Below are positions 6,761 through 35,543 of a DNA stretch of 35,705 nucleotides, in pieces. Below the pieces are notes generated by a model. That model was not told where the DNA came from. It made no database searches and worked only from the letters and a program-made list of their open reading frames with translations. The position numbers and the translations under genes were made by a program. Location: positions 1 to 35,705 of the forward strand of contig JAILCX010000070.1 of assembly GCA_024690205.1 (NCBI GenBank). The letters are read 5' to 3'. The first letter of the stretch is position 1. Every line of letters starts with the position of its first letter. The DNA comes from Lachnospiraceae bacterium (GTDB taxonomy: Bacteria > Bacillota > Clostridia > Lachnospirales > Lachnospiraceae).

Positions 6761-9010
6761 TTAATTTATTTTCTCCAATCTGGCGAATGCGGCATACATT
6801 ATCTTGGTGCCGTGATCGTCAAAATCCACGGTGACTTTATAATCTCTCGGACCCGATTCCATATCCGTGACTGTTCCCTCACCGAATTTAACATGACGGA
6901 CGCGGTCTTCCACATCATAATCGGGTTTGGATCCGGGTACTGCCTTTTGTGAAGAAGGAACACCTTTGCTAATCCCTGCTGCCTTAAGAGAATCAAGTCC
7001 TCCTCCGAAAGGAACCGGTGGCTTAACAGATCTTTCTTTTCGACCCGTGGATGAACGGTCCTCAAAAGAAGTCCTTTGATGAACCCTGTTATCCATAAGC
7101 GCCTTTGGTATTTCCTCTATGAAGCGGCTTACCGCATTAAACTGAAGTTCTCCTCTTACCAGGCGTGTCTTTGCGCAGGTTAAGGTCAGATCCTCTTTTG
7201 CCCTTGTAATACCGACATAAGCAAGCCTTCTTTCTTCTTCAACAAGCGTAGGATCGTCTTCCGAAAGAGACATGATACTCGGGAAAAGACCGTCTTCCAT
7301 TCCCGCAAGATACACGTTCTTAAACTCAAGACCCTTTGCAGAATGCAGTGTCATAAGCATTGCCCGGGGTACAGATGAGTCAACTTCATCTATATCCGCC
7401 ACTAACGCAACTTCCTCAAGGAGGCTCCTCAGTGATGCATTCTCATTGTTTTTCTCAAAATCTACCACCTTGTTCAGGAACTCTTCAACGTTCTCTATAC
7501 GGCTCTGATTCTCGTCGCTTGAGTCCGCTTCAAGCTCCGACATATATCCGGTAACATCGAGCACTTCCCTGATAAAATCGACAAGCCCCATGTTCCCGGC
7601 ATCTTTCCTTAAGGCATTTATCATATCGGCAAAGTCTTTAAGCTTTGACGATGCTTTGGCTATTGTGGGTATCTCATCGGCAATACATAGGGTATCAAAG
7701 AAGCTTGATCCATGCGACTGGGCATACTCAGTCACCTTTGATATCGTCGTGTTACCTATTCCCCTTTTGGGCACGTTTATTATCCTGCGTACCTGCAGAT
7801 CATCCCTTCCGTTATCGATGGTCTTAAGGTAAGCAAGTACGTCCTTTATCTCTTTTCTTGAATAGAAGTTAACACCACCCACCACGTTATACGGGATGCC
7901 TTCGTAAATGAACTTTTCTTCTATCAGTCTGGACTGTGCGTTCGTTCTGTATAAAACAGCCGTATCCGAAATATCCAGATTTTCCTTGCGCTGCTTTCTT
8001 GCGATGTCATCCGCTATGAATTCAGCCTCTTCATAAGCATTTTCAAACTGTCTGAAGTGGATGAGCGGTCCGCCGTCTTTTTCAGTCCAAAGACTCTTTG
8101 CTTTTCTTCCCTTGTTGTTGGAGATCACGGCATTTGCGGCATCAAGTATGTTTTGAGTCGAGCGGTAGTTCTGCTCGAGCCTTATAACCTTTGTATCAGG
8201 ATAATACTGCTCAAAATCAAGTATATTCCTGACATTTGCACCGCGGAATTTATATATGGACTGATCGTCATCTCCGACTACGCACAGATTTCCGTCATGT
8301 CCGGTAAGGAGCCTTATCAGTTTAAACTGCGAAGTATTGGTATCCTGGTACTCATCGACCATGATGTACTTAAACTTCTTTTGGTAGTTATCCAAAACAT
8401 CAGCTTCGTTTTCAAGCAACAGAACTGTGTTCATGATAAGGTCGTCAAAGTCCATGGCATTGTTCTTTTTGAGGATCTTCTGGTATTCGGTATATGCCTG
8501 TGCGATCCTCTTTAATCTGTAATCCTCGCCATATCTCATCATGTATTCGTCAGGTGCAAGCAGCTCGTCTTTAGCCGAAGATATCTCATTAAGGATGGTC
8601 TTTTCCTTAAGCATCTTAGTGTCTATATCAAGGTTTTTGCACACATTCTTCATTACGCTCTTTGAATCATCGGCATCATAGATCGTAAATCCGTTATCGT
8701 ATCCCAGTCTGTCGGCAAATCTCCTTAATATCTTTACGCAGCTGCTGTGGAACGTTGCTATCCACACACTCTCCGAGCCATAGCCCACAAGCTTGTCAAC
8801 TCGTTCTCTCATCTCGCCGGCGGCTTTGTTTGTAAAGGTTATCGCCATGATGTTGTATGGCTCGACATTCATTTTGTCGATAAGATAAGCCACCCTGTGG
8901 GTAAGGACTCTTGTCTTTCCGGAGCCCGCACCCGCAAGTACCAGTACTTTTCCTTCTGTTGTAAACACAGCCTCTTTTTGCTGCGGATTTAGCGTATCGT
9001 ATATCGACAT
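6761..9010 (-). CDS. pcrA: ATP-dependent DNA helicase PcrA (UvrD/Rep superfamily 1).
   Basis: LNPQQKEAV, Walker A AGAGSGKT, and helicase motifs (TFHSSC, VDEYQDT, VGDDDQSIY, YRSTQNIL, GIPY, MTLHSAKGLEF, VGITRAKE). C-terminal Tudor-like tail. Confidence 0.9.
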   Translation of the reverse strand: MSIYDTLNPQQKEAVFTTEGKVLVLAGAGSGKTRVLTHRVAYLIDKMNVEPYNIMAITFTNKAAGEMRERVDKLVGYGSESVWIATFHSSCVKILRRFADRLGYDNGFTIYDADDSKSVMKNVCKNLDIDTKMLKEKTILNEISSAKDELLAPDEYMMRYGEDYRLKRIAQAYTEYQKILKKNNAMDFDDLIMNTVLLLENEADVLDNYQKKFKYIMVDEYQDTNTSQFKLIRLLTGHDGNLCVVGDDDQSIYKFRGANVRNILDFEQYYPDTKVIRLEQNYRSTQNILDAANAVISNNKGRKAKSLWTEKDGGPLIHFRQFENAYEEAEFIADDIARKQRKENLDISDTAVLYRTNAQSRLIEEKFIYEGIPYNVVGGVNFYSRKEIKDVLAYLKTIDNGRDDLQVRRIINVPKRGIGNTTISKVTEYAQSHGSSFFDTLCIADEIPTIAKASSKLKDFADMINALRKDAGNMGLVDFIREVLDVTGYMSELEADSSDENQSRIENVEEFLNKVVDFEKNNENASLRSLLEEVALVADIDEVDSSVPRAMLMTLHSAKGLEFKNVYLAGMEDGLFPSIMSLSEDDPTLVEEERRLAYVGITRAKEDLTLTCAKTRLVRGELQFNAVSRFIEEIPKALMDNRVHQRTSFEDRSSTGRKERSVKPPVPFGGGLDSLKAAGISKGVPSSQKAVPGSKPDYDVEDRVRHVKFGEGTVTDMESGPRDYKVTVDFDDHGTKIMYAAFARLEKIN

Positions 9011-10230: not shown

Positions 10231-11541
10231 TTATTGAGCATCAGAGTCGTCAAAAACATCTCCGCACTCAGGGCAGAACTTCGGAGGATGTGTAGGATCC
10301 TCGGGAGTCCATCCGCACTTGTCACACTTGTATAAAGGTGCACCGGCGGGTTTCTTTGCTCCGCACTCAGAGCAGAACTTGCCGAGATTTCCGGTCTTTC
10401 CGCATGAGCATGTCCATCCCTCCTCGGGTACCGGTTGAGGCTTTCCGCACTCGGCACAGAACTTACCGGTGTTTCCGGTCTTTCCGCACGAACATGTCCA
10501 TCCCTCTTCCTTGGGTGCTCCTACTACGGGAGCAGGAATAGGTGTTCCCTGCGCCTGCTGGTATACGGGTGCGTTTGCACCTGCCATGTTAGCCATGTTC
10601 ATTCCGGCAAAAGCCATAACAGGGCCGGCAGCGGTATTTGAAGCAGCTGCCTGCATAGCAGAAGCTGTAGCTCCGGTCATCATACCCTGTCCGAGAGTCG
10701 GATTTGAAAGGGCAGCTGCTCTCTGGAGCTCTTTTATCATGTTCTCGTCTTCTTCGGATGCCTTTAATGTGTTGACACCGAATGAAACGATCTCTATTCC
10801 TCTTAAGTCTCTCCACTGATCTGAGAGCTCTTCGTTAAGTGCGTTTGCAAGTTCCTTTGTATGTCCGGGAACGGCTGAATATCTGATACCCATCTCTGAA
10901 ATTCTTGCAAATGCAGGCTGAAGAGCTGTAAGAAGCTCTGTCTTTAACTGAGAATCGATCTTGTCTCTTGTATATTCATCAGTTACATTGGCACATACAT
11001 TTGTATAGAAAAGGATGGGATTGGTGATCCTGTATGAGTACTCACCGTTACATCTTATTGAAATGTCAACGTCAAGTCCTATACGGGCATCAACGACTCT
11101 GAAAGGAACGGGATTAGCCGTACCGTATTTGTTTCCGATGATCTCCTTGGTGTTGAAGAAATAGATCCTCTGATCCTTTCCCGTATCTCCGCCAAAGGTA
11201 ATCCTCTTACCCATTGTCTTGAATGACTCGAGGATGCTTGTTCCGAGATTTCCTGAAAAGATGGAAGGCTCGGTAGACGTATCATAAGTAAATTCACCGG
11301 GCTCAGCACAAAGCTCAACGACCTTACCCTGATCTACTATGATCATGCACTGTCCGTCGTTAACTGCGATCACCGAACCGTTAGTAATGATATTATCCTG
11401 TCCTTTGTTGTTCCCCTTTGTTCTCTTTTGGCCTTTGGTAACAAGAACGTTCGCATCCATTGAATCACAGTAGAAATACTCTTTCCACTGATCTGAAAGC
11501 TGCGAGCTGACTCCGCCAACCACTGCACTAATAAGTCCCAT
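10231..11541 (-). CDS. SPFH/band-7 (stomatin-prohibitin-flotillin) family protein with a C-terminal array of zinc ribbons (COG4260 / YdjI-like).
   Basis: 436 aa with a GGAGGTG RBS. The globular N-terminal 300 aa has the architecture typical of PF13421-type SPFH proteins. The C-terminus has three tandem GWTCSCGKTGNxGKFCxECG ribbons plus CDKCG..CPECG. Confidence 0.65.
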   Translation of the reverse strand: MGLISAVVGGVSSQLSDQWKEYFYCDSMDANVLVTKGQKRTKGNNKGQDNIITNGSVIAVNDGQCMIIVDQGKVVELCAEPGEFTYDTSTEPSIFSGNLGTSILESFKTMGKRITFGGDTGKDQRIYFFNTKEIIGNKYGTANPVPFRVVDARIGLDVDISIRCNGEYSYRITNPILFYTNVCANVTDEYTRDKIDSQLKTELLTALQPAFARISEMGIRYSAVPGHTKELANALNEELSDQWRDLRGIEIVSFGVNTLKASEEDENMIKELQRAAALSNPTLGQGMMTGATASAMQAAASNTAAGPVMAFAGMNMANMAGANAPVYQQAQGTPIPAPVVGAPKEEGWTCSCGKTGNTGKFCAECGKPQPVPEEGWTCSCGKTGNLGKFCSECGAKKPAGAPLYKCDKCGWTPEDPTHPPKFCPECGDVFDDSDAQ

Positions 11542-24925: not shown

Positions 24926-25201
24926 TTATTCGAAAATCTTGCTTGCATCATCAGGCGGCACCATGATTCTTGCAGCATTCTGTCTGCTCTGGGCCATCTG
25001 ACTTTCAAGTATATCAACGAAGTTCGCCGTTTCACCTTTCTTTAAGGGATTCACGTTAAGGCTCTCATCGGTCAATGCGTTATAGTCCGTAGATGGTTTG
25101 GTAACATCGATCTCCACGGGCTTGACTCGATTGAGACTTGCTTCGCTCAGATAATTGGTATTGTAAATGTAAGGATTACTTCCTATAGCACCAATTCCCA
25201 T
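24926..25201 (-). CDS. Hypothetical 91-aa protein.
   Basis: MGIGAIGSNPYIYNTNYLSEASL... An AAGGAGAAG RBS lies 5 nt upstream and the gene has its own terminator. No recognisable family. Confidence 0.5.
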   Translation of the reverse strand: MGIGAIGSNPYIYNTNYLSEASLNRVKPVEIDVTKPSTDYNALTDESLNVNPLKKGETANFVDILESQMAQSRQNAARIMVPPDDASKIFE

Positions 25202-25249
25202 AGTCTTCTCCTTCTATAGATATGCAGATTATACACCTTTGCAGAATTC

Positions 25250-25289
25250 AAGTCAATGGCAAGTCAATGGGGACGGTTCTCTTTGACTT
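25250..25289 (+). repeat. GGGGACGGTTCTC-core repeat, locus 1. Single arm with a partial duplication.
   Basis: AAGTCAATGGC + AAGTCAATGGGGACGGTTCTCTTTGACTT. The full copy is itself a 7-15-7 inverted repeat (AAGTCAA ... TTGACTT). Confidence 0.7.
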
Positions 25290-25300
25290 ACAGCTGCTTC

Positions 25301-25329
25301 TTGCAAAAATCAGATGCTGTTAGTATGAT
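25301..25329 (+). promoter_or_regulatory. Candidate sigma-A promoter of the O-acylation cluster.
   Basis: TTGCAA (25301-25306), a 17-nt spacer, then TATGAT (25324-25329). Lies ~60 nt upstream of ATG 25389, whose RBS is AGGAGAAAC. Confidence 0.45.
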
Positions 25330-25388
25330 TTAATGTGTAATGTAACCCGACAGGGTACATATATTATTGGAATTAGGAGAAACAAAAC

Positions 25389-26354
25389 ATGATCGCGAAA
25401 ATCTGTAAAAGACGTGTAAAAGAACTCGCTACTCTTATAGCCGTTACGGTTTCGGTTACAGCTTTGAACATTACTTCTTTAGCTGCCCCTGTTGTTATGC
25501 CGGACGGCTCATTTTTTGATGCGGAATACTATGCAGCGAACAACCCTGACGTCGTTGCTGCTTATGGCAGTGATAATGCGGATTTCATGTATGAGCACTA
25601 TATAACATACGGTAAGAAAGAAGGCCGTCTTCCTTATGCCGGTGCGGATAAAACAGTTGCACCGGTTCAGCCTCCCCAATCTTCAACGGTTACCATCCCC
25701 GGGCTTGGCGTTCCCAAGATCCCCAACGGAAGCCGTACCACATCAACTGACGCTTCGGCATATTTTGCAAGAAGCGTGTTCGTAGGCGATTCGGTCCTTG
25801 CCGGATACAGAAACTATCTTGCCAAGCAGAAAAGTTCTCCCGTATCATCGGGAATTTTCCTTGCAGCTGCAAGTTACTCTGCTGCACATGCCCTTAACGA
25901 AAAAGATTCTCTTCACCCCATATACAAAGGAAAGAAACAGCCTGTCTGGACAGCTATATCACAGATGGATGTAGACCGCATATTTATCATGTTCGGAACA
26001 AATGATCTTGTTGTAAAGGATGCCGCCCCTGCTTCCGATGATGTTCTTGCTTTAGTCGACAAGATAAGGCAGTATAACCCCGGCAAGGAGATCCATATAA
26101 TCAGCATGTCACCGGTGTACGCAGGTACAAGCAAGGGGGCTATGAACAACCCGACGATAAAGATATATAATCAGCTCCTTTTGCAGGGTGCAATGGAAAG
26201 AGGTGTATATTACCTGGACCTTAACTCGCACCTTCTTAATTCAAACGGAGATCTGATCCCCAAATACTGTTCGGACCGCTATGTTCACCAGACATATGCT
26301 TCTTATTCGGAAGTCTGGGATCCTTTGTTTACTTCATACGCGTTAGGAGAATAA
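25389..26354 (+). CDS. Secreted SGNH/GDSL-family hydrolase (putative polysaccharide or teichoic-acid O-acetyl esterase/transferase partner).
   Basis: Signal peptide (LATLIAVTVSVTALNITSLAA). SGNH block I is FVGDSVLAG. Block III is MFGTNDL. DxxH candidate is DRYVHQ. Confidence 0.7.
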   Translation: MIAKICKRRVKELATLIAVTVSVTALNITSLAAPVVMPDGSFFDAEYYAANNPDVVAAYGSDNADFMYEHYITYGKKEGRLPYAGADKTVAPVQPPQSSTVTIPGLGVPKIPNGSRTTSTDASAYFARSVFVGDSVLAGYRNYLAKQKSSPVSSGIFLAAASYSAAHALNEKDSLHPIYKGKKQPVWTAISQMDVDRIFIMFGTNDLVVKDAAPASDDVLALVDKIRQYNPGKEIHIISMSPVYAGTSKGAMNNPTIKIYNQLLLQGAMERGVYYLDLNSHLLNSNGDLIPKYCSDRYVHQTYASYSEVWDPLFTSYALGE

Positions 26355-26357
26355 ATC

Positions 26358-27092
26358 ATGAAGAAGTCATTGAGAACCGTCCCCTTTGTCACGTTGGTTA
26401 TGTTGGTGTTGTTGTTAAGCGGATGCCGAAAGGCTGAGGCACCTGCTCAGGAGCCTGTGGCCGCAGTTGAAGAAAAAAAGGCTGATACAGCAGCTGAGAC
26501 ACCCGTACCGACTAAGGCTCCGGTTGTTGAAAAAGAAACCAAGGAAGAAACCGAGGTTAATAAATCCGAAGAAGAAAAAACCGACACTTCCGAACCCGCC
26601 AAAGAAGAGACCGCTGATCAGGCAGAAACAGATAAGGATTCCGCAAAAACAGGATCCGATGATGCAGCAAAGGCTGAAGAAAACAAAGCAGAAGAAAGCC
26701 AAACTAATGCGGTTGCTTTAAAAGATGTATACAACAAGATTGCAGGAAGCGTTGCTCTTCCCGAAATGTATTTTGCGGATGCAGGCTTTTTGATGAACTA
26801 TTACGGTATTGATGCTTCCAAACTTGAAGATTATGTTTTTGCTTCATGCCTTGATTCAACCTCAGCAGACTCCATCATCCTCATGAGATTAAAAGATGAA
26901 TCTTCTGCAGACGAAGTCATCGGTGGCCTTAACATGCTCCTTGAGCAGATGAGCATAGAGCTTGAAAGCTACAATCCCGAAGCCAATGAACTTGTAAAAG
27001 CCGCTAAGGTAAGACGTAACGGCAAAAACATTGACCTCATCATACATAAGGACAGAAACACAATATTGTCTGTCATAGACAGCTCATTATAG
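26358..27092 (+). CDS. Lipoprotein with a long E/K/T-rich low-complexity linker and a DUF4358-like C-terminal domain.
   Basis: Lipobox LLLSGC. The acidic linker spans ~26450-26700. The C-terminal domain (ALKDVYNKI...MYFADAGFLMNYYGID...SIILMRLKD) resembles DUF4358, which is commonly encoded beside MBOAT/DltD-like genes in Clostridia. Confidence 0.55.
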   Translation: MKKSLRTVPFVTLVMLVLLLSGCRKAEAPAQEPVAAVEEKKADTAAETPVPTKAPVVEKETKEETEVNKSEEEKTDTSEPAKEETADQAETDKDSAKTGSDDAAKAEENKAEESQTNAVALKDVYNKIAGSVALPEMYFADAGFLMNYYGIDASKLEDYVFASCLDSTSADSIILMRLKDESSADEVIGGLNMLLEQMSIELESYNPEANELVKAAKVRRNGKNIDLIIHKDRNTILSVIDSSL

Positions 27093-27104
27093 AAAGAAGA
27101 ACCC

Positions 27105-28547
27105 ATGGTTTTTTCAGGTCTTCCTTTTTTGATCTTTTTTCTGACAACTCTCATTCTTTGTTATTTTCCACTGGGAGCTGTCTTTAGGCGCATAAATATT
27201 CGATCCGGCATTGAAGTCAGAAACGGTATACTTCTGATTTTCAGCTTGTTTTTTTATGCATGGGGTGAGCCTAAGTGTATCTTTTTGCTCATCCTGTCTT
27301 CTTTTGTCGATTATATGGATGGTCTTCTTTTGGAAAGATTTGACGACCGTCCTGCACTGAGAAAACTTTTCCTCTCTGTTTCTTTGATCATCAATTTTTC
27401 GCTCCTTGGAGTAATGAAATACTCCGACTTTGTTGTAGGTACTTTAAATTCTCTTACCGGAGCGGGCCTTACTCTTCCCGGGATCGCCCTTCCCATCGGC
27501 ATAAGCTTTTATACATTCCAGACTACCAGCTATTCTATAGATGTATACAGACGCGAAGTAAAGGCAGAGCGGAATTTCTTCCGTTACCTTACATACATTT
27601 CGATGTTCCCCCAGCTTATCGCAGGTCCCATCGTACGTTACTCACTTATCAAAGAACAACTTGTATCAAGAAAGACAACTTTAGACAGTTTTTCCAGCGG
27701 TCTTCGCCGTTTTCTCATGGGACTTTTCAGAAAAGTCCTTATAGCCAACGAGCTTGGTGCGTTATGGGATCATCTAAGAGGTGTACAGAACCTTTCCGTT
27801 ACCGGAGCATGGCTTGGATTTCTGGTTTTCACCTTACAGCTTTATTATGATTTCAGCGCATATTCGGATATGGCCATCGGCCTAGGTCTTATGCTCGGCT
27901 TTCACTTTAACGAAAACTTCATCTATCCGCTTTCGGCTGTATCACTGACTGACTTTTGGAGACGCTGGCACATCTCTTTGTCTAGCTGGTTCCGTGACTA
28001 CGTTTATATCCCTCTTGGCGGAAACAAAAAAGGAAAGCTACGGCAGCTTCTTAATCTTGCGATAGTATGGTTCCTCACGGGACTTTGGCACGGCGCATTC
28101 TGGAATTATGTTCTTTGGGGAATCTATCACGGAACGATACTTGTCCTTGAAAAATTCATCTGGGGAAAGCATCTTGAAAAAGCGCCCCGGCTCGTAAGAC
28201 ACCTTTATACTTTGCTTATCGTGATCTTCGGATTTGGAATATTCTATTTTGAAGACATGAACGCATTAACACAGTATCTTACCTTTTCATTCGGAACAGC
28301 CGGCAATGCTCTTTTGGGAAATGAATTATTATGGGCGTTTGGCAATTACCTTCCGGTCCTTATATTTGCGATCCTTTTCATGTTCCCGGTCTTTCCGAAG
28401 ATCAGGGATTACATCCATACACTCGGAGAGAAAAAAGAAAGCATCGCACGTTTTGCGGCCGGATCACTCTCCGTTTTACTGCTGATACTTTGCATAGCAA
28501 ACCTTGTAAGAGATTCCTTTAACCCTTTTTTGTATTTCAGGTTTTGA
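27105..28547 (+). CDS. MBOAT-family membrane-bound O-acyltransferase (AlgI/DltB-like).
   Basis: Multi-TM protein. The invariant MBOAT His block is FWRRWHISLSSWFRDYVYIPLGGN. Confidence 0.85.
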   Translation: MVFSGLPFLIFFLTTLILCYFPLGAVFRRINIRSGIEVRNGILLIFSLFFYAWGEPKCIFLLILSSFVDYMDGLLLERFDDRPALRKLFLSVSLIINFSLLGVMKYSDFVVGTLNSLTGAGLTLPGIALPIGISFYTFQTTSYSIDVYRREVKAERNFFRYLTYISMFPQLIAGPIVRYSLIKEQLVSRKTTLDSFSSGLRRFLMGLFRKVLIANELGALWDHLRGVQNLSVTGAWLGFLVFTLQLYYDFSAYSDMAIGLGLMLGFHFNENFIYPLSAVSLTDFWRRWHISLSSWFRDYVYIPLGGNKKGKLRQLLNLAIVWFLTGLWHGAFWNYVLWGIYHGTILVLEKFIWGKHLEKAPRLVRHLYTLLIVIFGFGIFYFEDMNALTQYLTFSFGTAGNALLGNELLWAFGNYLPVLIFAILFMFPVFPKIRDYIHTLGEKKESIARFAAGSLSVLLLILCIANLVRDSFNPFLYFRF

Positions 28548-29764
28548 TGATAATGAAAAAACACTCTGTTAAAGATCTGATAAAATACATACCCGAATTT
28601 GCTGCGATCACGGTTTTGTTTGCGTTTGCAGTCATGTTCATGCTCTCATACCAAAAGGAGTTTTCCGAAAACGAAAACCGCGTCTTAGCCTCATGTCCCG
28701 CTCCTTCTTTGGATGGCATTTTCGATCACTCATTCATGGATTCCTTTGAGGATTATATATCGGATCAGTTTCCTTTAAGAGATGACCTTTTATCTTTTTC
28801 TGTCATCGCATCAAGAGCAGAAGGCAAAAAAGAAGTAAACGGAGTGATCTATGCCAAAGAAGGTCCTGATAACATCCGTCTCATCGACCGATACAACAAG
28901 CCTCAAAACGCTGACAAGTTCATAGATGCCGTAGCCAGATTAAAAGATGGAGTAACCTCAGCCGATATCACGGTAATGGTCGTTCCGACTTCATACTGGT
29001 TATATGAAGATGAAATGCCCAAAACGACCCTTAATACAGAACGTCCGCTTCAAAAGGACACTTTAAAATACATTAATGACGGGATAGACAACCTGGGCGC
29101 ATCAACTAAGGTTAATATGGTTGATAACATATTTGACCGCCTTACGGACGGCCGAAAGGCAGGTCTCAACATCTTTTACCGGACCGATCATCACTGGACA
29201 ACAAGCGGTGCCTATATGGGGTATCTTGCGCTTTCGCCATACCTTATGCTTCCCGAAAGAAAAGATCTCCTTTCAAATCTTACATGCATCAGCGATTCCT
29301 TTTACGGCACGACATGGTCAAAAGTCGTTGACCGCTCTGTTAAACCTGACACGATGGATATATATGATTCACCCGAATGGAAAGACCATCTTACGGTAAC
29401 ATATGAAAATACCGGCGAGTCTTTTAATTCTCCGTATAACCGCGATTATCTTAATGTCAAAGATAAGTATTCCGTTTTCCTTAATAACCAGCATTCCCTT
29501 ATTACCATAAAGAACGAAAATGCCGACCTTACAAGAACTGATGGGGAGGAGCATCGTGCGCTTGTTGTGATAAAGGACAGCTATGCTAACTCCCTTATCC
29601 CGTTCCTTATCGATCATTATGAGACCATATGGGTATTCGACCCAAGATATTACAGAGGCAGCATAACCGAATGGATAAATGATCATCCCGAAGTTAAAGA
29701 TGTCCTTGTGCTTTATAACCTTTCCACCATGGATAACGACAGAGGCCTTGGTGCGATATACTGA
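28547..29764 (+). CDS. DltD/AlgJ/AlgX-like O-acyltransferase accessory protein (DHHW family).
   Basis: ATG 28547 overlaps the MBOAT stop in a TGATGA arrangement. N-terminal TM anchor. Signature YRTDHHWTTSGAYMGY (the DHHW motif of the AlgJ/DltD family). Confidence 0.7.
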   Translation: MIMKKHSVKDLIKYIPEFAAITVLFAFAVMFMLSYQKEFSENENRVLASCPAPSLDGIFDHSFMDSFEDYISDQFPLRDDLLSFSVIASRAEGKKEVNGVIYAKEGPDNIRLIDRYNKPQNADKFIDAVARLKDGVTSADITVMVVPTSYWLYEDEMPKTTLNTERPLQKDTLKYINDGIDNLGASTKVNMVDNIFDRLTDGRKAGLNIFYRTDHHWTTSGAYMGYLALSPYLMLPERKDLLSNLTCISDSFYGTTWSKVVDRSVKPDTMDIYDSPEWKDHLTVTYENTGESFNSPYNRDYLNVKDKYSVFLNNQHSLITIKNENADLTRTDGEEHRALVVIKDSYANSLIPFLIDHYETIWVFDPRYYRGSITEWINDHPEVKDVLVLYNLSTMDNDRGLGAIY

Positions 29765-29768
29765 TAAC

Positions 29769-29850
29769 AAGTCAACGGGGACGGTTCTCTTTGAACCTGT
29801 TCTCATTGGGTTCAATGGGTAAGTCAAAGAGAACCGTTCCCGTTGAGCCT
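29769..29850 (+). repeat. GGGGACGGTTCTC-core repeat, locus 2. Convergent inverted pair able to form a ~23-bp-stem hairpin with a 29-nt loop.
   Basis: Arm 1 (29772-29794) is TCAACGGGGACGGTTCTCTTTGA. Arm 2 (29824-29846) is TCAAAGAGAACCGTTCCCGTTGA, which is the reverse complement with 1 mismatch. The loop contains a small nested hairpin GAACC-N11-GGTTC. Confidence 0.75.
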
Positions 29851-29887
29851 GAACCCACCATTGTGTTTTAGTAGAAAGAGGTGCCGA

Positions 29888-31534
29888 ATGACCAAAAGAC
29901 TCACAGCCGTTTTACTAACGATCAGCCTGGCATTTAGCAGCACGGCATGTTCTGCCGAAGAAGTTAAAGGCAAGGCGGACTCCGCTAAAAATTCCATAGA
30001 AAAAGCTGCCGACGAAGCGGCCGATACGATCGGAAAAACAGCATCTGACGTATCCGAGGTTGTTAGTTCCAAAGCAGCCGAGGCTGTCGGATATGCTTCG
30101 GAATGGTACTCAAATATCGATACGGCAAAGTTTAAGCAGGGCTGGAATTACTCGGTTGAGTTCCTGGGCGAAAAGTATTCGGAAGCGGTAGACAGTGAAT
30201 ATATCAGATCCGTTGCGGAAAATATGGCAAAGATACGCTCCAACATGGAAAGCGCATCTTCCGCTCTCATAGATTCTGCAATCGACAAAGAACAGCTTGC
30301 AATGAAGTGGGCAACGGAAACCTATTCCGACGTTAAAGATGCAAGCCTTGAGATGATCGAAGAGAACTCTTATCTTAAGTACTTTTCGTCTGCTGATAAG
30401 GAAGCATCAAAGGAGGCCATGAACCTTCTTGTATCCTATTATGATTACGCCCGGCAGATGTCATCGCCCGTTGAACTTAAGGATTATATTGATGATTTCT
30501 GTGCCAAAGAAAGCGCTGATCTTAATGCCTTATATAAATCAGTTCTTAATGATCAGGAGCTTATAATTCCTGATGAGCAAATGCCCGGCACCATCGCCTA
30601 TATCACCGGCATATCGGACAAAATGCCCGGGGAAACTCAATCAAAATTCCTTTCCAAGGATTCCCTTTACGAACGCACGGTAAAATCCCTTAAGAAAAGA
30701 TATGAAGATAACAGTTTAAGTGAAAGCAAGGCTCCCACAGCGGCAGAGATAATCGCACTTGCTCAGTTGGCCGAGGAAGGAACCTTACAGCCTTCTGATT
30801 TTAACGTATCGGTATCAACACTCCTTTGCCCCAAATACGTTCTTAAACAGGCCTGCTATTCCGTTTCCGGAATGTCAGATTTTGATGATGTTGTTAATAT
30901 AGGTTCAAGTGTCTATTCCATACTGAAGGAAGCGGCATCCGATGGGCATATAGATACCGACGCTCTCAAAAAGGGGGATATGAAAACTGTTCTGGCTTCA
31001 TCCGACGGTTTTGTTGAAGGTTCGGTAAGTCAGTTTGTTATATCGGGATGCAGAGAAGGAAACTGGGGAGAATATATAAAAGATGATCCTTCCCTTTGTG
31101 CCGTGATCTCGGTTCTCGTCATTGATGGAGCAGTAATTGGATATGATCTTTGCCGCGGCGATATCACACTTGACGAATACGGAAACATGATGGCGGACAT
31201 GCTCTTTACGTCACTGCTTTCCCTTCCTACAAACGCGGTCGTTATCGCGCTTTTACCTTCTTTGTATATGACGGCTCTTGCAGGCTCCATGGCCGGCGTG
31301 ACTATGGTTGCTCTCGGATATGAAGATTCGGAAGCTGCAAAGAGCGCGATGCTTGATGTTGTAAACGGCGGAGGATTTGAGGCATTTGTTCCCGCAGGAA
31401 CTACCGAAGCCATAAGCGTAGCCAAAAGCAAGATAGAATCTCTAAGCATGAAAAACAAGATCTCATCATTTAAAGATACGATGATATCAACCACCAAAGA
31501 GGGATACATCAACATAGAAACGATCCCCGATTAA
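29888..31534 (+). CDS. Hypothetical 548-aa lipoprotein of unknown function.
   Basis: Start re-set to ATG 29888 (MTKRLTAVLLTISLAFSSTAC lipobox), with an AGAGGTG RBS. The ORF-track start is upstream. The C-terminal third contains hydrophobic/Gly-rich segments. No family recognised. Confidence 0.6.
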   Translation: MTKRLTAVLLTISLAFSSTACSAEEVKGKADSAKNSIEKAADEAADTIGKTASDVSEVVSSKAAEAVGYASEWYSNIDTAKFKQGWNYSVEFLGEKYSEAVDSEYIRSVAENMAKIRSNMESASSALIDSAIDKEQLAMKWATETYSDVKDASLEMIEENSYLKYFSSADKEASKEAMNLLVSYYDYARQMSSPVELKDYIDDFCAKESADLNALYKSVLNDQELIIPDEQMPGTIAYITGISDKMPGETQSKFLSKDSLYERTVKSLKKRYEDNSLSESKAPTAAEIIALAQLAEEGTLQPSDFNVSVSTLLCPKYVLKQACYSVSGMSDFDDVVNIGSSVYSILKEAASDGHIDTDALKKGDMKTVLASSDGFVEGSVSQFVISGCREGNWGEYIKDDPSLCAVISVLVIDGAVIGYDLCRGDITLDEYGNMMADMLFTSLLSLPTNAVVIALLPSLYMTALAGSMAGVTMVALGYEDSEAAKSAMLDVVNGGGFEAFVPAGTTEAISVAKSKIESLSMKNKISSFKDTMISTTKEGYINIETIPD

Positions 31535-31554
31535 GATCATCGACATGCACGAAT

Positions 31555-31591
31555 ATAAAAAAAGAGGTTGCCCAAAGGCACCCTCTTTTTT
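31555..31591. terminator. Bidirectional rho-independent terminator between convergent genes.
   Basis: A-run, then hairpin AAGAGG-TTGCC-CAAA-GGCAC-CCTCTT, then a TTTTTT run. Confidence 0.65.
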
Positions 31592-31609
31592 AATGATCAT
31601 TTCTTAATC

Positions 31610-32251
31610 TTATACAGTTATAGGAGCATCACAATAATCACATGTGCAGGATGTTCCTCTTCTCATTGTCATCTTAGCTCCGCAACCGGGGCAGGCAACC
31701 GTAACAAGTTCTCCGCCGACGGGAGCTTCACCTGCAAAGGAACCTGTAGCCTGAGTCTGCTGTGAGATGGCAGGTCTTACGAATGTAACGATGTGTGAGT
31801 TGGTATCAAGTGTTGTATTCTTTAAAACGCCGATTGCAATAAGCTGAGATATCTCTTTTTCAGCAGTTGCTACGGTAACGCCGCACGCTGCAGCTATAGC
31901 GTTAACATCGTCTATATCCTGGTTGATGATCATGTCAATATAATCTCTGTTTCTTGCTGCGGTTTTTGCTATCTTCGTTGAATAGTAGATCAAAACACCG
32001 CCACCGATTATCATGAACAGTCCCCATATCCACTTGTTGTCTCCGCTAAACAGATTAGCGATACCAAGGATTATAAGGATAGCTCCTCCGAGAATATAAA
32101 TCTTCTGGTTTGATGCTCCCTTGAACACGGCCTGTTTGTCCATGCTGCTTCCCTTAGCTCTTAACAGGATAAGAACTATTCCTGCCGGCCAGAAAATAAG
32201 GAACGCCAAAATGATGACTATTGTTGATAAATACCAAGGACGCTGTTGCAT
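31610..32251 (-). CDS. Membrane protein with N-terminal TM helices and a C-terminal zinc ribbon. Third gene of SPFH cluster II.
   Basis: TM helices LSTIVIILAFLIFWPAGIVLILL, ILGGAILIILGIANLF and GLFMIIGGGVLIYY. C-terminal ribbon is CPGCGAKM...CTCDYC. Confidence 0.55.
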   Translation of the reverse strand: MQQRPWYLSTIVIILAFLIFWPAGIVLILLRAKGSSMDKQAVFKGASNQKIYILGGAILIILGIANLFSGDNKWIWGLFMIIGGGVLIYYSTKIAKTAARNRDYIDMIINQDIDDVNAIAAACGVTVATAEKEISQLIAIGVLKNTTLDTNSHIVTFVRPAISQQTQATGSFAGEAPVGGELVTVACPGCGAKMTMRRGTSCTCDYCDAPITV

Positions 32252-32270
32252 ATTAGTTTACCCCCGTTTC

Positions 32271-32972
32271 TTAAAACATAGCTCGTGATGAGCTTATAAG
32301 TCTGTTTCTTTCTTCAGCAAGTCTTTCTATTGCCTTGCTGGCTGATATTATGGATGCTTCATTGTTTTCATCCACTGCACGCGACAGATTTCCAACTTCT
32401 GTAAGCATCTTGCTTTCAATCTCGGCAACTACAGGTGTGCTCCTTACCTGGCCTGATGCAAGTGCATCAACTGCCTTTAGAACATCTTTTCTGTACGGAG
32501 CAGAATAATCGATCTTACCTGCTGCGAGTTTTGCATTTTCAAGTATTGATTTAAAGATCGCTATATCCTGGCCTCTTAATGCCTGCTGCTGTTTTACATC
32601 GGCATTTGCCTTTCTCATGCAAAGGTAAACAACAAGGAAAACAACAAGTATAACTATCTGCCAAAGGAACGAAAAGAAGACGGCATTCTTAAGCAGGAAA
32701 GAACATGTTGCGGCAACAACTATCTGCGCTATAAGATATAAAGTCACTACCGGATATAGAACATAAGCATAGATCTGCTTTTTCTCTCCAATACCGACAT
32801 CAAAGATCATAAAGATAAGAGCCAGTGCAAATGCGATAATTGAAAAAGCAAAACTAATCCAAAAAACGGTTGTATAGGTTTCAAGAACCGCAAAAAGAAC
32901 GATGTTGACCGCAATAAGTGCTGCAGCCATTATGAATGCAGTTGTAGCATTTAAAAACTTTATCGCCTTCAT
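32271..32972 (-). CDS. Polytopic membrane protein (about 4 TM) with a cytoplasmic alpha-helical C-terminal domain. Second gene of SPFH cluster II.
   Basis: GGAGGA RBS. Start lies 2 nt after the stop of the upstream SPFH gene. Confidence 0.55.
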   Translation of the reverse strand: MKAIKFLNATTAFIMAAALIAVNIVLFAVLETYTTVFWISFAFSIIAFALALIFMIFDVGIGEKKQIYAYVLYPVVTLYLIAQIVVAATCSFLLKNAVFFSFLWQIVILVVFLVVYLCMRKANADVKQQQALRGQDIAIFKSILENAKLAAGKIDYSAPYRKDVLKAVDALASGQVRSTPVVAEIESKMLTEVGNLSRAVDENNEASIISASKAIERLAEERNRLISSSRAMF

Positions 32973-32973
32973 A

Positions 32974-34326
32974 TTATTCCTCCTTGTTTCCGCAATTACC
33001 GCAGAACTTCATTCCTTCAGCAAGTTCTGCTCCGCACTTGGAACATACTCTCTTTGTCGGTCCCACCGGAGTTCCGCAATTACCGCAGAATTTCATTCCG
33101 GCAGGTACCTCTTGTCCGCAGTTTGCACAGATAACCTTGGGAGGTTCTACATTGGCTCCGCATGAACCGCAGAACTTCATTCCGGCAGGTACCGTAGCTC
33201 CGCATACGGGACATGCAATGTTTCCGCCTGCTGCTCCCTGGGTAAAGAGATTGTTCATCATTGCTCCGGCAGACTGGCCTACTGAATTACCCATACCGAG
33301 CCCCAATCCTGCCTGCATGAACATAGCTCCATCTCCTTCGTTGGAAACGGCAGCCTTCATGATCTCTGCAGCTTCCTGTCTCGCCCAGCCGTTGTTTCCG
33401 TCTTGATCCCTTATCTTCATACGTTCGTAGTCAGCGTAAGCGCCCTGACCTGAAACATAACGGTCCTTTTCTGCGCCTTCACGCTCAAGGCCGTACTGTA
33501 CTCTGGTATCGAGTATCTCCTGTTCACGGTCAAATTCTCTTTCCTGACGAGACATCTTCATTTCGAGCATACGCTTCATGTAAGGATCATTATCAGGAAT
33601 CTGAATATTCTCTATATAGAAATTGATAAGCTCAAGGCCATACTCTGCAAGAACTTCGTTAAGAGGCGCTTTCAAAGAATCGGCAAGCGCCTTCTTTCTG
33701 TTAATAACAACGATAACCTCTTCATCACCGCCTGCAAGATAAGCTGCAAGTTCATCCGTTATGTTTTGCTTGAAAGCAGTCTTAAAGCTGTTTTTAACAG
33801 ACTCTTCGGTGATGTTTTCGGCTCTTCCTGGAGCAGTCTGAAGCGAGCCGCCATGTCCTCCGACGAGTTTTAAGAAGAACTGCTTAGAGTTGCTGACAGC
33901 AACGGTATATGCACCTCTTGCAGAAACAGTAAGGACAATACCTGATCTGGGATCTACAACCTTGATGGGATCGCTGGTTCCCCACTTCATCTCAAGGTGA
34001 TGGCCCTTGTTGATAAAATATACTTTACAGTTAAACGGACTCTCGCCTCCTGAAAGCATCTTTGAAAGGAACTTTGTAAGGAAAGGATAGTTCTCCGTTG
34101 TAAGAGTATACTTTCCCGAAGTAAAGACTTCTTCAATGATACCGTCCTTCATGAAGAGCGCTTCTTCATACTCGGCAACTATAAGCTGAGCACCGTTATT
34201 AAAATCTTCATTCGGAACCTTGTAACAGATCTCGCCGTTACGGGCGTTGTTCTTAATGACGCTTAAGATAGGATTTGAGGGTTTTTCGGAAGAATCCCCC
34301 AGAATTTTGTCTAAGCCAAAAGCCAT
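32974..34326 (-). CDS. SPFH/band-7 family protein with C-terminal tandem zinc ribbons (COG4260 / YdjI-like). Paralog of the gene at 10231-11541.
   Basis: AAGGGG RBS. Four C-terminal repeats of the type CPVCGATVPAGMKFCGSCG. Same overall architecture as the 10231-11541 protein. Confidence 0.65.
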   Translation of the reverse strand: MAFGLDKILGDSSEKPSNPILSVIKNNARNGEICYKVPNEDFNNGAQLIVAEYEEALFMKDGIIEEVFTSGKYTLTTENYPFLTKFLSKMLSGGESPFNCKVYFINKGHHLEMKWGTSDPIKVVDPRSGIVLTVSARGAYTVAVSNSKQFFLKLVGGHGGSLQTAPGRAENITEESVKNSFKTAFKQNITDELAAYLAGGDEEVIVVINRKKALADSLKAPLNEVLAEYGLELINFYIENIQIPDNDPYMKRMLEMKMSRQEREFDREQEILDTRVQYGLEREGAEKDRYVSGQGAYADYERMKIRDQDGNNGWARQEAAEIMKAAVSNEGDGAMFMQAGLGLGMGNSVGQSAGAMMNNLFTQGAAGGNIACPVCGATVPAGMKFCGSCGANVEPPKVICANCGQEVPAGMKFCGNCGTPVGPTKRVCSKCGAELAEGMKFCGNCGNKEE

Positions 34327-34479
34327 AATATTACCCCTTCATAATCATAGTTTTGAAGTTTTTATTATTTAAACACCTCATATTAAATGATACCTTAATG
34401 AAGCTTTAAAAACAACAATTATTTATGCACTTGTCCGAGCCTGTTTCCTTTGATAAAATCAATGAACATGAAGTCTTTG

Positions 34480-34562
34480 AAGTCAATGGGGACGGTTCTC
34501 ATTGAACCCATTCTCATGAGAGGTCAAAGAGTAAGTCAAAGAGAGCCGTCCCCATTGAACCC
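34480..34562 (+). repeat. GGGGACGGTTCTC-core repeat, locus 3. Convergent inverted pair forming a hairpin.
   Basis: Arm 1 (34483-34505) is TCAATGGGGACGGTTCTCATTGA. Arm 2 (34536-34558) is TCAAAGAGAGCCGTCCCCATTGA, which matches the reverse complement at 21/23. A partial extra copy GAAGTCTTTGA immediately precedes it. The loop contains the palindrome TCTCATGAGA. Confidence 0.75.
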
Positions 34563-34593
34563 GCCATTATGTTTTAGGGGAAAGAGGTGACAA

Positions 34594-35475
34594 ATGATCA
34601 AACGACTCGCAACCGTTTTACTCACGATATGCCTGGCATTTAGCATCGTGGCATGTTCAGACGAGGAAGTTAAGGACATTTATGCTCCGCCAGTTAGGAT
34701 TGAAGAAATCGATTCCGTTTCGAAAGAATCCCCTTTGCCAAAACAAGCATCACAAGAAGAAGCCAAAAGCGAGCCCCTGATCTCCACCCCGGAAAAGCAA
34801 GGGGAACCGGTTGGACAAATAGCCGAAAACAATAAAGAGAAGCAACCCGGCGAAAAGGAAGACACCAAGGTCGAAGAAATATCCGACGACCGTTCTCAGG
34901 AAAAAGCAGAAAAGCAAACTGAAGCGACACCGACACCCGAAACAACACCTGAACGGTCGCCCGAAAAACAGCGAATCCTCTTTGTCGGGGATTCAAGGAC
35001 TATCGATATGTTTGCGGATTCAGACGAGACCTTATCAGGCGCCGTACATGACGGCATAACCGTCTATGCAAAGCATGGCTACGGCTTTGACTTTATGAAG
35101 GAGTCGGTAAACAGTTTCGGCACCGATAATTTTGACATCCTTATAAGCTGGATGGGAGCCAACGATCACGGAAACTTTGACTCCTACAGAAGCTACTATT
35201 CATCTTTGATAGAAAGCGGAAAGACCGTAATACTTTGCACGGTCGGACCGACCGATGATGAGCATCTTGTTTCATACGACCATCCGAACTATGAGAACGT
35301 GATGATGCTAAAATATAACGAATCTCTTCTTTCCTTTGCAAAAGAAAAAGGTATAAAAGTCATCGACCTTTATACCTATATTTCAAATAACATTTCTATC
35401 GATCCTGCCGACGGGATCCATTATACTCCCCGTCCGACAACTTCCATCTGGAACTATATCCGTTCCATGATCTGA
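34594..35475 (+). CDS. Lipoprotein with a C-terminal SGNH/GDSL hydrolase domain and a long acidic/proline-rich linker.
   Basis: Lipobox LAFSIVAC. SGNH block I is ILFVGDSRT. Block III is GANDH. Block V is DGIHYT. Confidence 0.75.
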   Translation: MIKRLATVLLTICLAFSIVACSDEEVKDIYAPPVRIEEIDSVSKESPLPKQASQEEAKSEPLISTPEKQGEPVGQIAENNKEKQPGEKEDTKVEEISDDRSQEKAEKQTEATPTPETTPERSPEKQRILFVGDSRTIDMFADSDETLSGAVHDGITVYAKHGYGFDFMKESVNSFGTDNFDILISWMGANDHGNFDSYRSYYSSLIESGKTVILCTVGPTDDEHLVSYDHPNYENVMMLKYNESLLSFAKEKGIKVIDLYTYISNNISIDPADGIHYTPRPTTSIWNYIRSMI

Positions 35476-35514
35476 TCACCAATTCATTCCTGGGCAAATA
35501 CTCTCATTTTGGGG

Positions 35515-35543
35515 AAGTCAAAGAGAACCGTCCCCTTTGAACC
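35515..35543 (-). repeat. GGGGACGGTTCTC-core repeat, locus 4. Single arm on the opposite strand.
   Basis: Reverse complement reads GGTTCAAAGGGGACGGTTCTCTTTGACTT. This is identical to the locus-1 core over 21 nt. Confidence 0.7.

Follow-up and report, generated by a model that had tools for sequence, protein, structure and literature searches.

Repetitive extragenic palindromic (REP) sequences and the tyrosine transposases associated with them (RAYTs) have been described as REP/REPIN-RAYT systems in Escherichia coli, Pseudomonas and Stenotrophomonas (PMC2817692; Bertels & Rainey 2011, PMC3116915; structure 4ER8). In gammaproteobacteria, RAYTs are accompanied by classical REPs, which combine a GT(A/G)G head with short loops (Nunvar 2010, PMC2817692). 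TIRtrons are composed of RAYT-like genes, called TIRYTs, flanked by inverted repeats that share the motif GGGGWSAS (Di Nocera et al. 2013, PMC3733652). Some of these terminal inverted repeats (TIRs) are self-complementary and moderately abundant, and they occur in dimers or clusters (PMC3733652). The published TIRtrons come from Proteobacteria, Acidobacteria and similar hosts, and the words Firmicutes and Clostridia are absent from that article (PMC3733652). In the classification of Quentin et al. (2018, PMC6006769), TIRYT corresponds to subclass 2.1 of the TnpA_Y1 proteins, characterized by the NHVH and FQ motifs, a C-terminal helix-turn-helix (HTH) and a length of about 238 residues, and no REP-like sequences were reported next to subclass 2.1 genes (PMC6006769). 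Group 1 RAYTs occur in Clostridia, with frequencies of the flanking 16-mers that are only slightly raised (12) (Bertels et al. 2017, PMC5581495). Here, we analyse a family of intergenic repeats of ~29 nt found in contig JAILCX010000070.1. This contig, in its entire length of 35.7 kb, is called the window hereafter, and it belongs to an NCBI metagenome-assembled genome (MAG) labelled 'Lachnospiraceae bacterium'.

These repeats very probably constitute a REP/REPIN-like, TIRtron-type non-autonomous family spread by a RAYT/TIRYT-type Y1 (HUH) transposase of the IS200/IS605 superfamily. They are not operators of a regulon of secreted-protein genes. Literature searches combining REPIN/RAYT with Firmicutes, or using TIRYT, revealed no earlier report of this kind of family from Clostridia, and searches with the core sequence of the repeat and its complement yielded unrelated primers only.

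The repeat unit and its associated transposase

The core of the repeat, GGGGACGGTTCTC, has seven matches with at most two mismatches in the window, where 0.49 are expected, and none of 100 shuffled sequences reached that number. Allowing three mismatches added matches at chance level only. A sequence-only reading of the window had previously reported six copies at four loci. All six are present where it had placed them, and it had overlooked a seventh one on the minus strand (26363-26388), in the first codons of the open reading frame (ORF) 26358-27092. It had also missed that each single unit is a hairpin by itself, with the core as its loop.

Across the family, the unit consists of a variable, covarying stem of 6-10 bp around an almost invariant 13-nt loop, (G/A)GGGACGGTTCT(C/T). 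The stem is AAGTCAA/TTGACTT in the window, and elsewhere it is GAGTCAA/TTGACTC, GTGTCAA/TTGACAC, GTGACAA/TTGTCAC, CTGCCA/TGGCAG or GCACCAA/TTGGTGC, among others. In the 182 units that were retrieved through the protein only, without recourse to the search pattern, pairs -3 to -6 form in 85-94% of the cases, each by several types of base pairs. At pair -5/+17, for example, TA is found 56 times, GC and CG 40 times each and AT 14 times. The covariation score calculated on 68 units is 0.382, versus 0.191 after shuffling (with 0/500 shuffles as high) and 0.08-0.15 when the partners are slid. As those 68 units were picked by eye to be in the same register, the pairing figure based on 182 units is less biased.

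The arrangement of the units is also characteristic. Over all loci, adjacent inverted pairs are in the '+-' order in 86 cases and in the '-+' order in 8, and 119 pairs are in tandem. Partial 5' copies, which consist of the left arm and the first 1-6 bases of the core, recur throughout the family, with 57 of them upstream and 16 in the mirrored position downstream. A self-pairing variant of the core, GGGGACGGTTCTC-nnn-GAGAACCGTCCCC, with a 3-nt loop and usually a T-run after it, was observed in loci L006, L031, L061, L081, L105 (Eubacteriales MAG binchicken_co266_180) and L093 (Omnitrophota MAG). It looks like a terminator, or like a minimal '+-' doublet devoid of arms. This core-on-core palindrome followed by a T-run is found only in other MAGs, not in the window.

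The sequence-only reading had suggested a pattern search of related genomes. Scanning the genome collection with the pattern GGGGACGGTTCTCNTTGA revealed the core in at least 117 genome stretches, which come from dozens of genomes, and about 240 cores with at most one mismatch were counted in the matches listed together with the window. For comparison, 17 fixed bases in 596 Gb give a chance expectation of ~70 matches by our own arithmetic. Among the matches listed, those with arms and multiple copies are mostly from rumen or gut Clostridia, namely Lachnospiraceae, Butyrivibrio, Oscillospiraceae and Tissierellia. Cultured carriers include Lachnospiraceae bacterium AD3010, AC3007, Butyrivibrio sp. 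NC2007, FCS014 and B. proteoclasticus P6B7, and the core is present in at least eight 8-kb tiles of AD3010 and at least seven of NC2007. In transposase-bearing contigs, the density of cores more than 1 kb away from the gene (0.21 per kb) is similar to that in the window (0.20 per kb). Most copies (183/247) are intergenic, many of the others touch only the ends of ORFs, and the TGA of the right-arm TTGA is often a stop codon.

Single matches were also found in Nitrospira, Conexibacter, Marmoricola and similar genomes. They are located inside ORFs and lack arms, and given the ~70 matches expected they are probably fortuitous. A few MAGs labelled Actinobacteria, Deltaproteobacteria, Prevotella/Bacteroidota or Omnitrophota harbour real-looking multi-copy families, which may result from mis-binning. 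The scan of viral contigs gave two matches, which is chance level, and thus the element is not carried by phages; a single weak match was obtained in the plasmid collection. In Prevotella sp. tf2-5 (L009, NZ_FOWK01000015.1, 48001-56000), eight copies of the 13-nt core without arms are present in 8 kb. They are part of a conserved repeat of ~100 nt (GGGGACGGTTCTGAATGATCCAyTTTyCTGTCyAAAyATTTTGTA...ATACCTTTGCA) that resembles a promoter region of Bacteroidetes and precedes several small genes on the minus strand. The tf2-5 copies belong to this different, longer repeat.

The clustering of the ORFs of element-bearing loci indicated a family of Pfam Y1_Tnp proteins (PF01797, IS200-like) encoded in four of them, one being the AD3010 locus. 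The other clusters correspond to ubiquitous ATP-binding cassette (ABC) and two-component families. In all four loci, a '+' unit is found upstream of the transposase gene and a '-' unit immediately after its stop codon. As a reciprocal test, we retrieved 80 metagenomic loci by protein alignment alone, with 43-94% identity. Among the loci with enough sequence, a '+' core is present at most 400 nt upstream of the transposase gene in 56/72 and a '-' core at most 200 nt downstream in 61/77, and 47 of the 80 homologue loci have cores on both sides. The units at both ends of one gene have the same arms. Between transposase lineages the arms differ, and the core stays (G/A)GGGACGGTTCT. The arms of the window units, AAGTCAA/TTGACTT, are those of the AD3010-type clade.

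The transposase is a protein of 245-247 residues with the HUH motif NHVH (NHVHLL), a conserved Tyr (RYI), an FQ motif (GHLFQDRY) and a conserved C-terminal helical segment, LTIRQIERLTGI.RN.VQKA. Its best NCBIfam match is NF047646, 'REP-associated tyrosine transposase', with 49.5-81.7 bits for a cut-off of 80, and the NCBIfam IS200 model gives 25 bits for a cut-off of 55. In the AlphaFold model (mean pLDDT of 86), the C-terminal domain is helical; no significant match to a Pfam HTH family was obtained for the transposase. In the PDB, the closest fold is that of the E. coli RAYT in complex with a REP hairpin (4ER8_A; E 3e-6, TM-score 0.72 on the target), followed by those of the IS608, ISDra2 and IS200 transposases. 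When the PDB was searched by sequence, using the profile of the transposase, no match was obtained, so that these matches come from the fold search alone. There are 1,991 database proteins at E ≤ 1e-20, named 'transposase' or, by JGI (Joint Genome Institute), 'REP element-mobilizing transposase RayT'. Judging by the motifs alone, the family appears to fit the Group 1 / subclass 2.1 clade.

Mobility and proposed mechanism

Several metagenomic contigs carry near-identical copies of the element in different contexts. Thus, L157, L158 and L160 have ~870 nt in common (99% identity). This segment begins and ends exactly with the outer feet of its left and right hairpins, its flanks are unrelated and no target duplication is present. 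Similarly, a transposase segment of 932 nt is 99.7% identical between L126 and L127 (2834-3765), again with unrelated flanks, and here the breakpoints are inside the G-run of each core (GG|GGACGG...CCGTCC|CC). Copies at 99% identity in three unrelated contexts argue for mobility or transfer. Taken together, the breakpoints in the G-run and the partial 5' copies may point to breakage within this part of the loop. In addition, two contigs that are 99.7% identical, L044 (3056/3057) and L084 (3654-3755), differ by a 102-nt indel that directly adjoins the left arm of a unit. In L084, the additional sequence comprises a ribosome-binding site (RBS) and the beginning of a small ORF, and the indel may represent an element-adjacent deletion.

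We propose that the unit functions as a hairpin of single-stranded DNA (ssDNA), whose lineage-specific stem would present the invariant loop to the transposase. In the autonomous form, a '+' unit is situated 60-200 nt upstream of the transposase gene and a '-' unit 13-30 nt past its stop codon, and a doublet would correspond to the same two ends minus the gene. Indeed, as the doublets have the same '+-' polarity as the gene-flanking units, they look like both ends with the gene removed. The enzyme presumably binds the hairpin and recognizes the conserved loop, and it would cut the DNA at this hairpin or close to it, perhaps within the loop's G-run. The seven window copies comprise singlets, REPIN-like convergent doublets and partial copies, and they would be products of such a transposase, whose gene is presumably located elsewhere in the genome, off this contig. 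Effects on neighbouring genes would then be by-products of insertion. These might include the -35-like TTGAC(T/A) arms, hairpins in a 5' untranslated region (UTR) or between cistrons, and a unit that became part of a signal peptide.

It is a far more tentative proposal, possible but doubtful at this stage, that the repeat is the cognate of the Group 1 / subclass 2.1 RAYTs, a large and little-understood clade to which published surveys ascribed no REPs, that the mechanism of these enzymes is unlike those of IS608 and the classical RAYTs, with the loop recognized and perhaps nicked, and that the system is still active. If so, the putative nick would occur around GG^GGACGG in the 13-nt loop, in a rolling-circle Rep-like manner, and the stem would be free to drift. 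Transposition and horizontal movement would also be ongoing in rumen Clostridia and beyond, seeding -35 boxes, 5'-UTR hairpins and signal-peptide codons.

A number of observations weigh against a REP-like family mobilized by this transposase. There is no transposase gene on the window contig, and hence for the host organism the link rests on the identity of the arms with those of the AD3010-type clade. A position frequency table of 242 units showed no GTAG head at either foot of the hairpin. Conservation is in the 13-nt loop, whereas in classical REPs, with their GT(A/G)G head, it is in a GC-rich stem with a loop of 2-5 nt. The two types of boundaries disagree, being at the hairpin foot in one set of contigs and in the G-run of the core in the other. 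Where the contexts come from metagenomic contigs, transposition inside one genome cannot be told apart from horizontal transfer. Lastly, the sequence-only reading had proposed to look for insertion polymorphism between strains, and the retrieved loci include no clean case of filled versus empty site for a singlet or a doublet, only the 102-nt indel next to a unit. In particular, the 93%-identical relative L205 keeps the copy embedded in the ORF 26358-27092, with three substitutions, and provides no filled/empty contrast.

Copies in the window and rival explanations

The window copies are distributed between 25.2 and 35.6 kb. At locus 1, a partial unit on the plus strand (25250-25259), made of the left arm AAGTCAA, a spacer and the core bases GG, precedes unit 1 (25261-25289, plus strand). 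The latter is an intact hairpin with the stem 25261-25267/25283-25289 (AAGTCAA/TTGACTT) and the core 25269-25281 as its loop. It is the sole unit of the window with a complete stem, of 7 bp, and alone it folds with -4.5 kcal/mol (z -2.8). Stems of 4-5 bp are left in units 3 to 7. The sequence-only reading had described partial tandem duplications of the start of the arm at loci 1 and 3 and interpreted them as footprints of replication slippage. The duplication is present at locus 1 (AAGTCAATGG|CAAGTCAATGGGG, 25250-25272), and at locus 3 only GAAGTC is repeated. Since AAGTCAATGG at 25250 is one of the partial copies that recur family-wide, the footprint is not a local accident.

Unit 1 is located between divergent genes, just upstream of the promoter-like sequence TTGCAA-17-TATGAT for the GDSL gene at 25389. 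On the other strand, the reverse complement of the partial arm (25251-25256) forms the -35 box of a promoter-like site, TTGACT-17-TATAAT (25256..25228, minus strand), with an 11/12 match, which faces a divergent ORF of 91 residues without Pfam match (24926-25201). Unit 2, the minus-strand copy with its core at 26372, is degenerate and has no stem left. It is inside the coding sequence of a DUF4358 lipoprotein gene (26358-27092), where it encodes codons 3-12 (KSLRTVPFVT) of the signal peptide. In the DUF4358 homologues with at most 65% identity, the signal peptide is of equal length and ordinary, without a copy.

The two convergent inverted pairs reported by the sequence-only reading were recovered at loci 2 and 3. 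Doublet 1 is located between a DHHW gene, which ends at 29764, and the gene 29888-31534. Its left half is unit 3 (29769-29797, plus strand; core 29777-29789), whose own stem is weakened (AAGTCAA / TTGAACC), and its right half is unit 4 (29821-29849, minus strand; core 29829-29841, with one mismatch). Doublet 2 is composed of unit 5 (34480-34508, plus strand; core 34488-34500) and unit 6 (34533-34561, minus strand; core 34541-34553, with one mismatch). As it is downstream of a promoter-like site, TTGTCC-17-TAAAAT (34431-34459), it is probably in the 5' UTR of the gene 34594-35475. Unit 7 (35515-35543, minus strand; core 35523-35535) is a single copy in the gap after that gene, with a remaining stem of 5 bp. 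The arms of doublet 1 (29772-29794 / 29824-29846) and doublet 2 (34483-34505 / 34536-34558), all of 23 nt, have a complementarity of 96% and 91% and a spacing of 29 and 30 nt, respectively. The corresponding hairpins of 23 bp (29772-29846 and 34483-34558) fold as ssDNA with -28.6 kcal/mol (z -7.5) and -22.1 kcal/mol (z -6.6), and both contain a nested mini-hairpin.

Loci 2 and 3 also share a larger module of ~205 nt (29769-29972 / 34480-34678; about 83% identity), not recognized in the sequence-only reading, which comprises the doublet, an RBS and 27 codons. In its first copy, the segment 29850-29972 (plus strand) contains the RBS, the start and 27 codons of a lipoprotein signal peptide and is 83-84% identical to the RBS and signal-peptide segment 34556-34678 (plus strand), 3' of doublet 2. 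The module is fused to unrelated mature proteins, one of 548 residues from an unknown family and the other a GDSL-like protein of 293 residues.

Other features of the window were noted. Coding repeats with a period of 84 nt, CTCCGCACTC.GGCAGAACTT..., are found in two genes on the minus strand, at 10260-10509 and 32988-33177. The gene that contains the latter (32974-34326) codes for a Band_7 protein with multiple zinc-ribbon domains. At 7170-7267 on the minus strand, within a large minus-strand ORF, there is a sub-threshold match to Rfam n00280 (38.6 bits versus a gathering threshold of 65.2, E 0.006), a C. difficile small RNA located inside a helicase gene.

We considered whether the units might be mainly regulatory or structural elements of the host, i.e. 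terminators, hairpins that stabilize or process mRNA, or operators of exported-protein genes, with a secondary link to the transposase. This appears unlikely. Five of the seven window copies are upstream of signal-peptide genes and a sixth one occupies the first codons of the DUF4358 lipoprotein gene, the doublets would be very stable hairpins in intercistronic RNA or a 5' UTR, and classical REPs affect mRNA stability and termination (PMC3733652). However, the specific tie to secreted-protein genes seen in the sequence-only reading disappears at the scale of the family. The position of the 247 copies relative to genes is random, and so is their orientation with respect to the upstream gene (82 on the same strand, 85 on the opposite strand). 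Furthermore, the orthologous GDSL-DUF4358-MBOAT-DHHW operons of relatives (L120-L123, 57-65% protein identity) are devoid of the element, which rules out a conserved operator of these exported-protein genes. Nor would an operator flank a transposase gene in inverted orientation in 47/80 loci, or travel with that gene. The arms match TTGAC(A/T) and are thus -35-like, and one partial arm even gives the 11/12 promoter match described above, yet a -10-like signal at the proper spacing is absent family-wide from the position frequency table of 242 units, and a promoter element was therefore rejected. In favour of a regulatory role, a T-rich tract follows the right arm throughout the family (T 0.49-0.55 at +22 to +26), with no matching A-run on the 5' side. 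As to the intrinsic terminator, also contemplated in the sequence-only reading, no window unit or doublet forms one. The only hit in a scan of the four loci was 29783-29797, a weak stem of 5 bp inside unit 3, and together with the loops of 13-17 nt and the random orientation this led us to discard it. Searching the whole window against Rfam gave no match at the repeat loci at permissive thresholds, even at E values up to 1.

The core might instead be a signal for conserved host machinery in rumen bacteria, such as a DNA-uptake, chromosome-organization or recombination site, which we regard as very improbable. The inverted pairs forming terminator-like hairpins recall those of the DNA uptake sequence (DUS) of Neisseria. 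Such a role would be in keeping with a core that is nearly invariant even between transposases with as little as 43% identity and units with entirely different stems, as well as with the presence of the core in MAGs labelled Actinobacteria, Deltaproteobacteria, Bacteroidota and Omnitrophota. However, the core is bound in both position and orientation to the ends of the Y1 transposase gene, and most single matches in odd phyla look fortuitous, the rest being possibly mis-binned. In addition, the TIRs of related TIRYT genes in Proteobacteria and Acidobacteria share the similar motif GGGGWSAS (PMC3733652; PMC6006769), and hence the invariance of the core fits an enzyme recognition or cleavage site. 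Even less probable is a local segmental duplication of one cassette of promoter and signal peptide as the origin of the window copies. The sequence-only reading had contemplated that all copies could belong to one duplicated segment. This is true solely for loci 2 and 3, with their shared module of about 83% identity. Homology between the other copies ends at the unit, the part of the module downstream of the doublet was found nowhere else in the 200 loci searched, and the unit itself is present in more than 100 loci of other genomes. Local duplication is thus already refuted as a general account and holds only for locus 2 versus locus 3.

Comparison with known systems

Work on REP/RAYT systems has dealt almost exclusively with Proteobacteria. 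The family described here, a REP/REPIN-like repeat very probably spread by a Y1 transposase, is found in rumen Lachnospiraceae and Butyrivibrio at ~1 copy per 5 kb. It is distinctive in its Bacillota host, in its invariant loop with a drifting stem and in its apparently continuing mobility. It would explain numerous contig breaks and odd, short ORFs annotated as 'hypothetical' in rumen MAGs, and next to genes for surface or secreted proteins it would supply pieces of promoters, RNA hairpins and insertions in coding sequences. In the window, the copies are best annotated as repeat or mobile-element features rather than as regulatory sites. The cultured hosts AD3010, NC2007 and B. proteoclasticus could provide a tractable model for recognition and cutting by Group 1/TIRYT enzymes.

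The sequence-only reading had compared the repeats both with REPs and bacterial interspersed mosaic elements (BIMEs) and with Correia elements. Mobile repeats of the REP/BIME type have proven to be the better comparison, as the units are dispersed hairpins with covarying stems, present in doublets and clusters, and their inverted copies flank a RAYT-like Y1 transposase gene in relatives. The resemblance to Correia elements (NEMIS) and other miniature inverted-repeat transposable elements (MITEs) is limited to their being short and intergenic, with inverted ends, and to their potential to carry promoter pieces and form RNA hairpins. Those elements are 70-300 bp long, with TIRs of the DDE type and a target-site duplication (TA in Correia). 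In contrast, the units described here are ~29 nt long, no target-site duplication was seen, and their context is not of the DDE type.

With the IS200/IS605 family, including IS608 and ISDra2, the system shares the HUH/Y1 core of the transposase, ends marked by hairpins, the lack of target-site duplication and, presumably, an ssDNA chemistry. However, the ends of IS608 are not mutual inverted repeats and cleavage takes place outside the hairpins, whereas here the ends are inverted copies of one hairpin. TnpA of IS200/IS605 has about 130-155 residues and no C-terminal domain, in contrast with the protein of 245 residues with an extra domain found here, and the IS200/IS605 family lacks abundant derivative repeats of 30 nt. 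Classical REP/RAYT systems are similar in that they consist of short extragenic palindromes, in high copy number (as is apparently the case here too), organized in inverted doublets and clusters, with inverted copies flanking a Y1 gene. Repeat and transposase also covary, and 4ER8 is the best structural match. Aside from the head and the location of the conserved bases discussed above, the differences are that the protein described here is ~80 residues longer, that the host phylum is Bacillota and that near-identical transposase copies are found in varied contexts, which makes them resemble an insertion sequence (IS) more than a domesticated single-copy gene.

The TIRtron/TIRYT type shares the basic organization, a RAYT-like Y1 transposase gene between inverted repeats at fixed distances. 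The start of the core, GGGGACGG, matches the TIRtron motif GGGGWSAS at 7/8 positions, with G rather than A at position 7. The proteins are also alike, with about 240 residues, the NHVH and FQ motifs and a helical, HTH-like C-terminal extension. In contrast, the Tyr motif is RYIL(N/Q)NP in the present family and Y[IV]HLNP in the published one. Moreover, each end of the present element is a clear hairpin with the motif in its loop, the density of units is high (~0.2 per kb), and the loop of 13 nt does not vary even over deep divergence.

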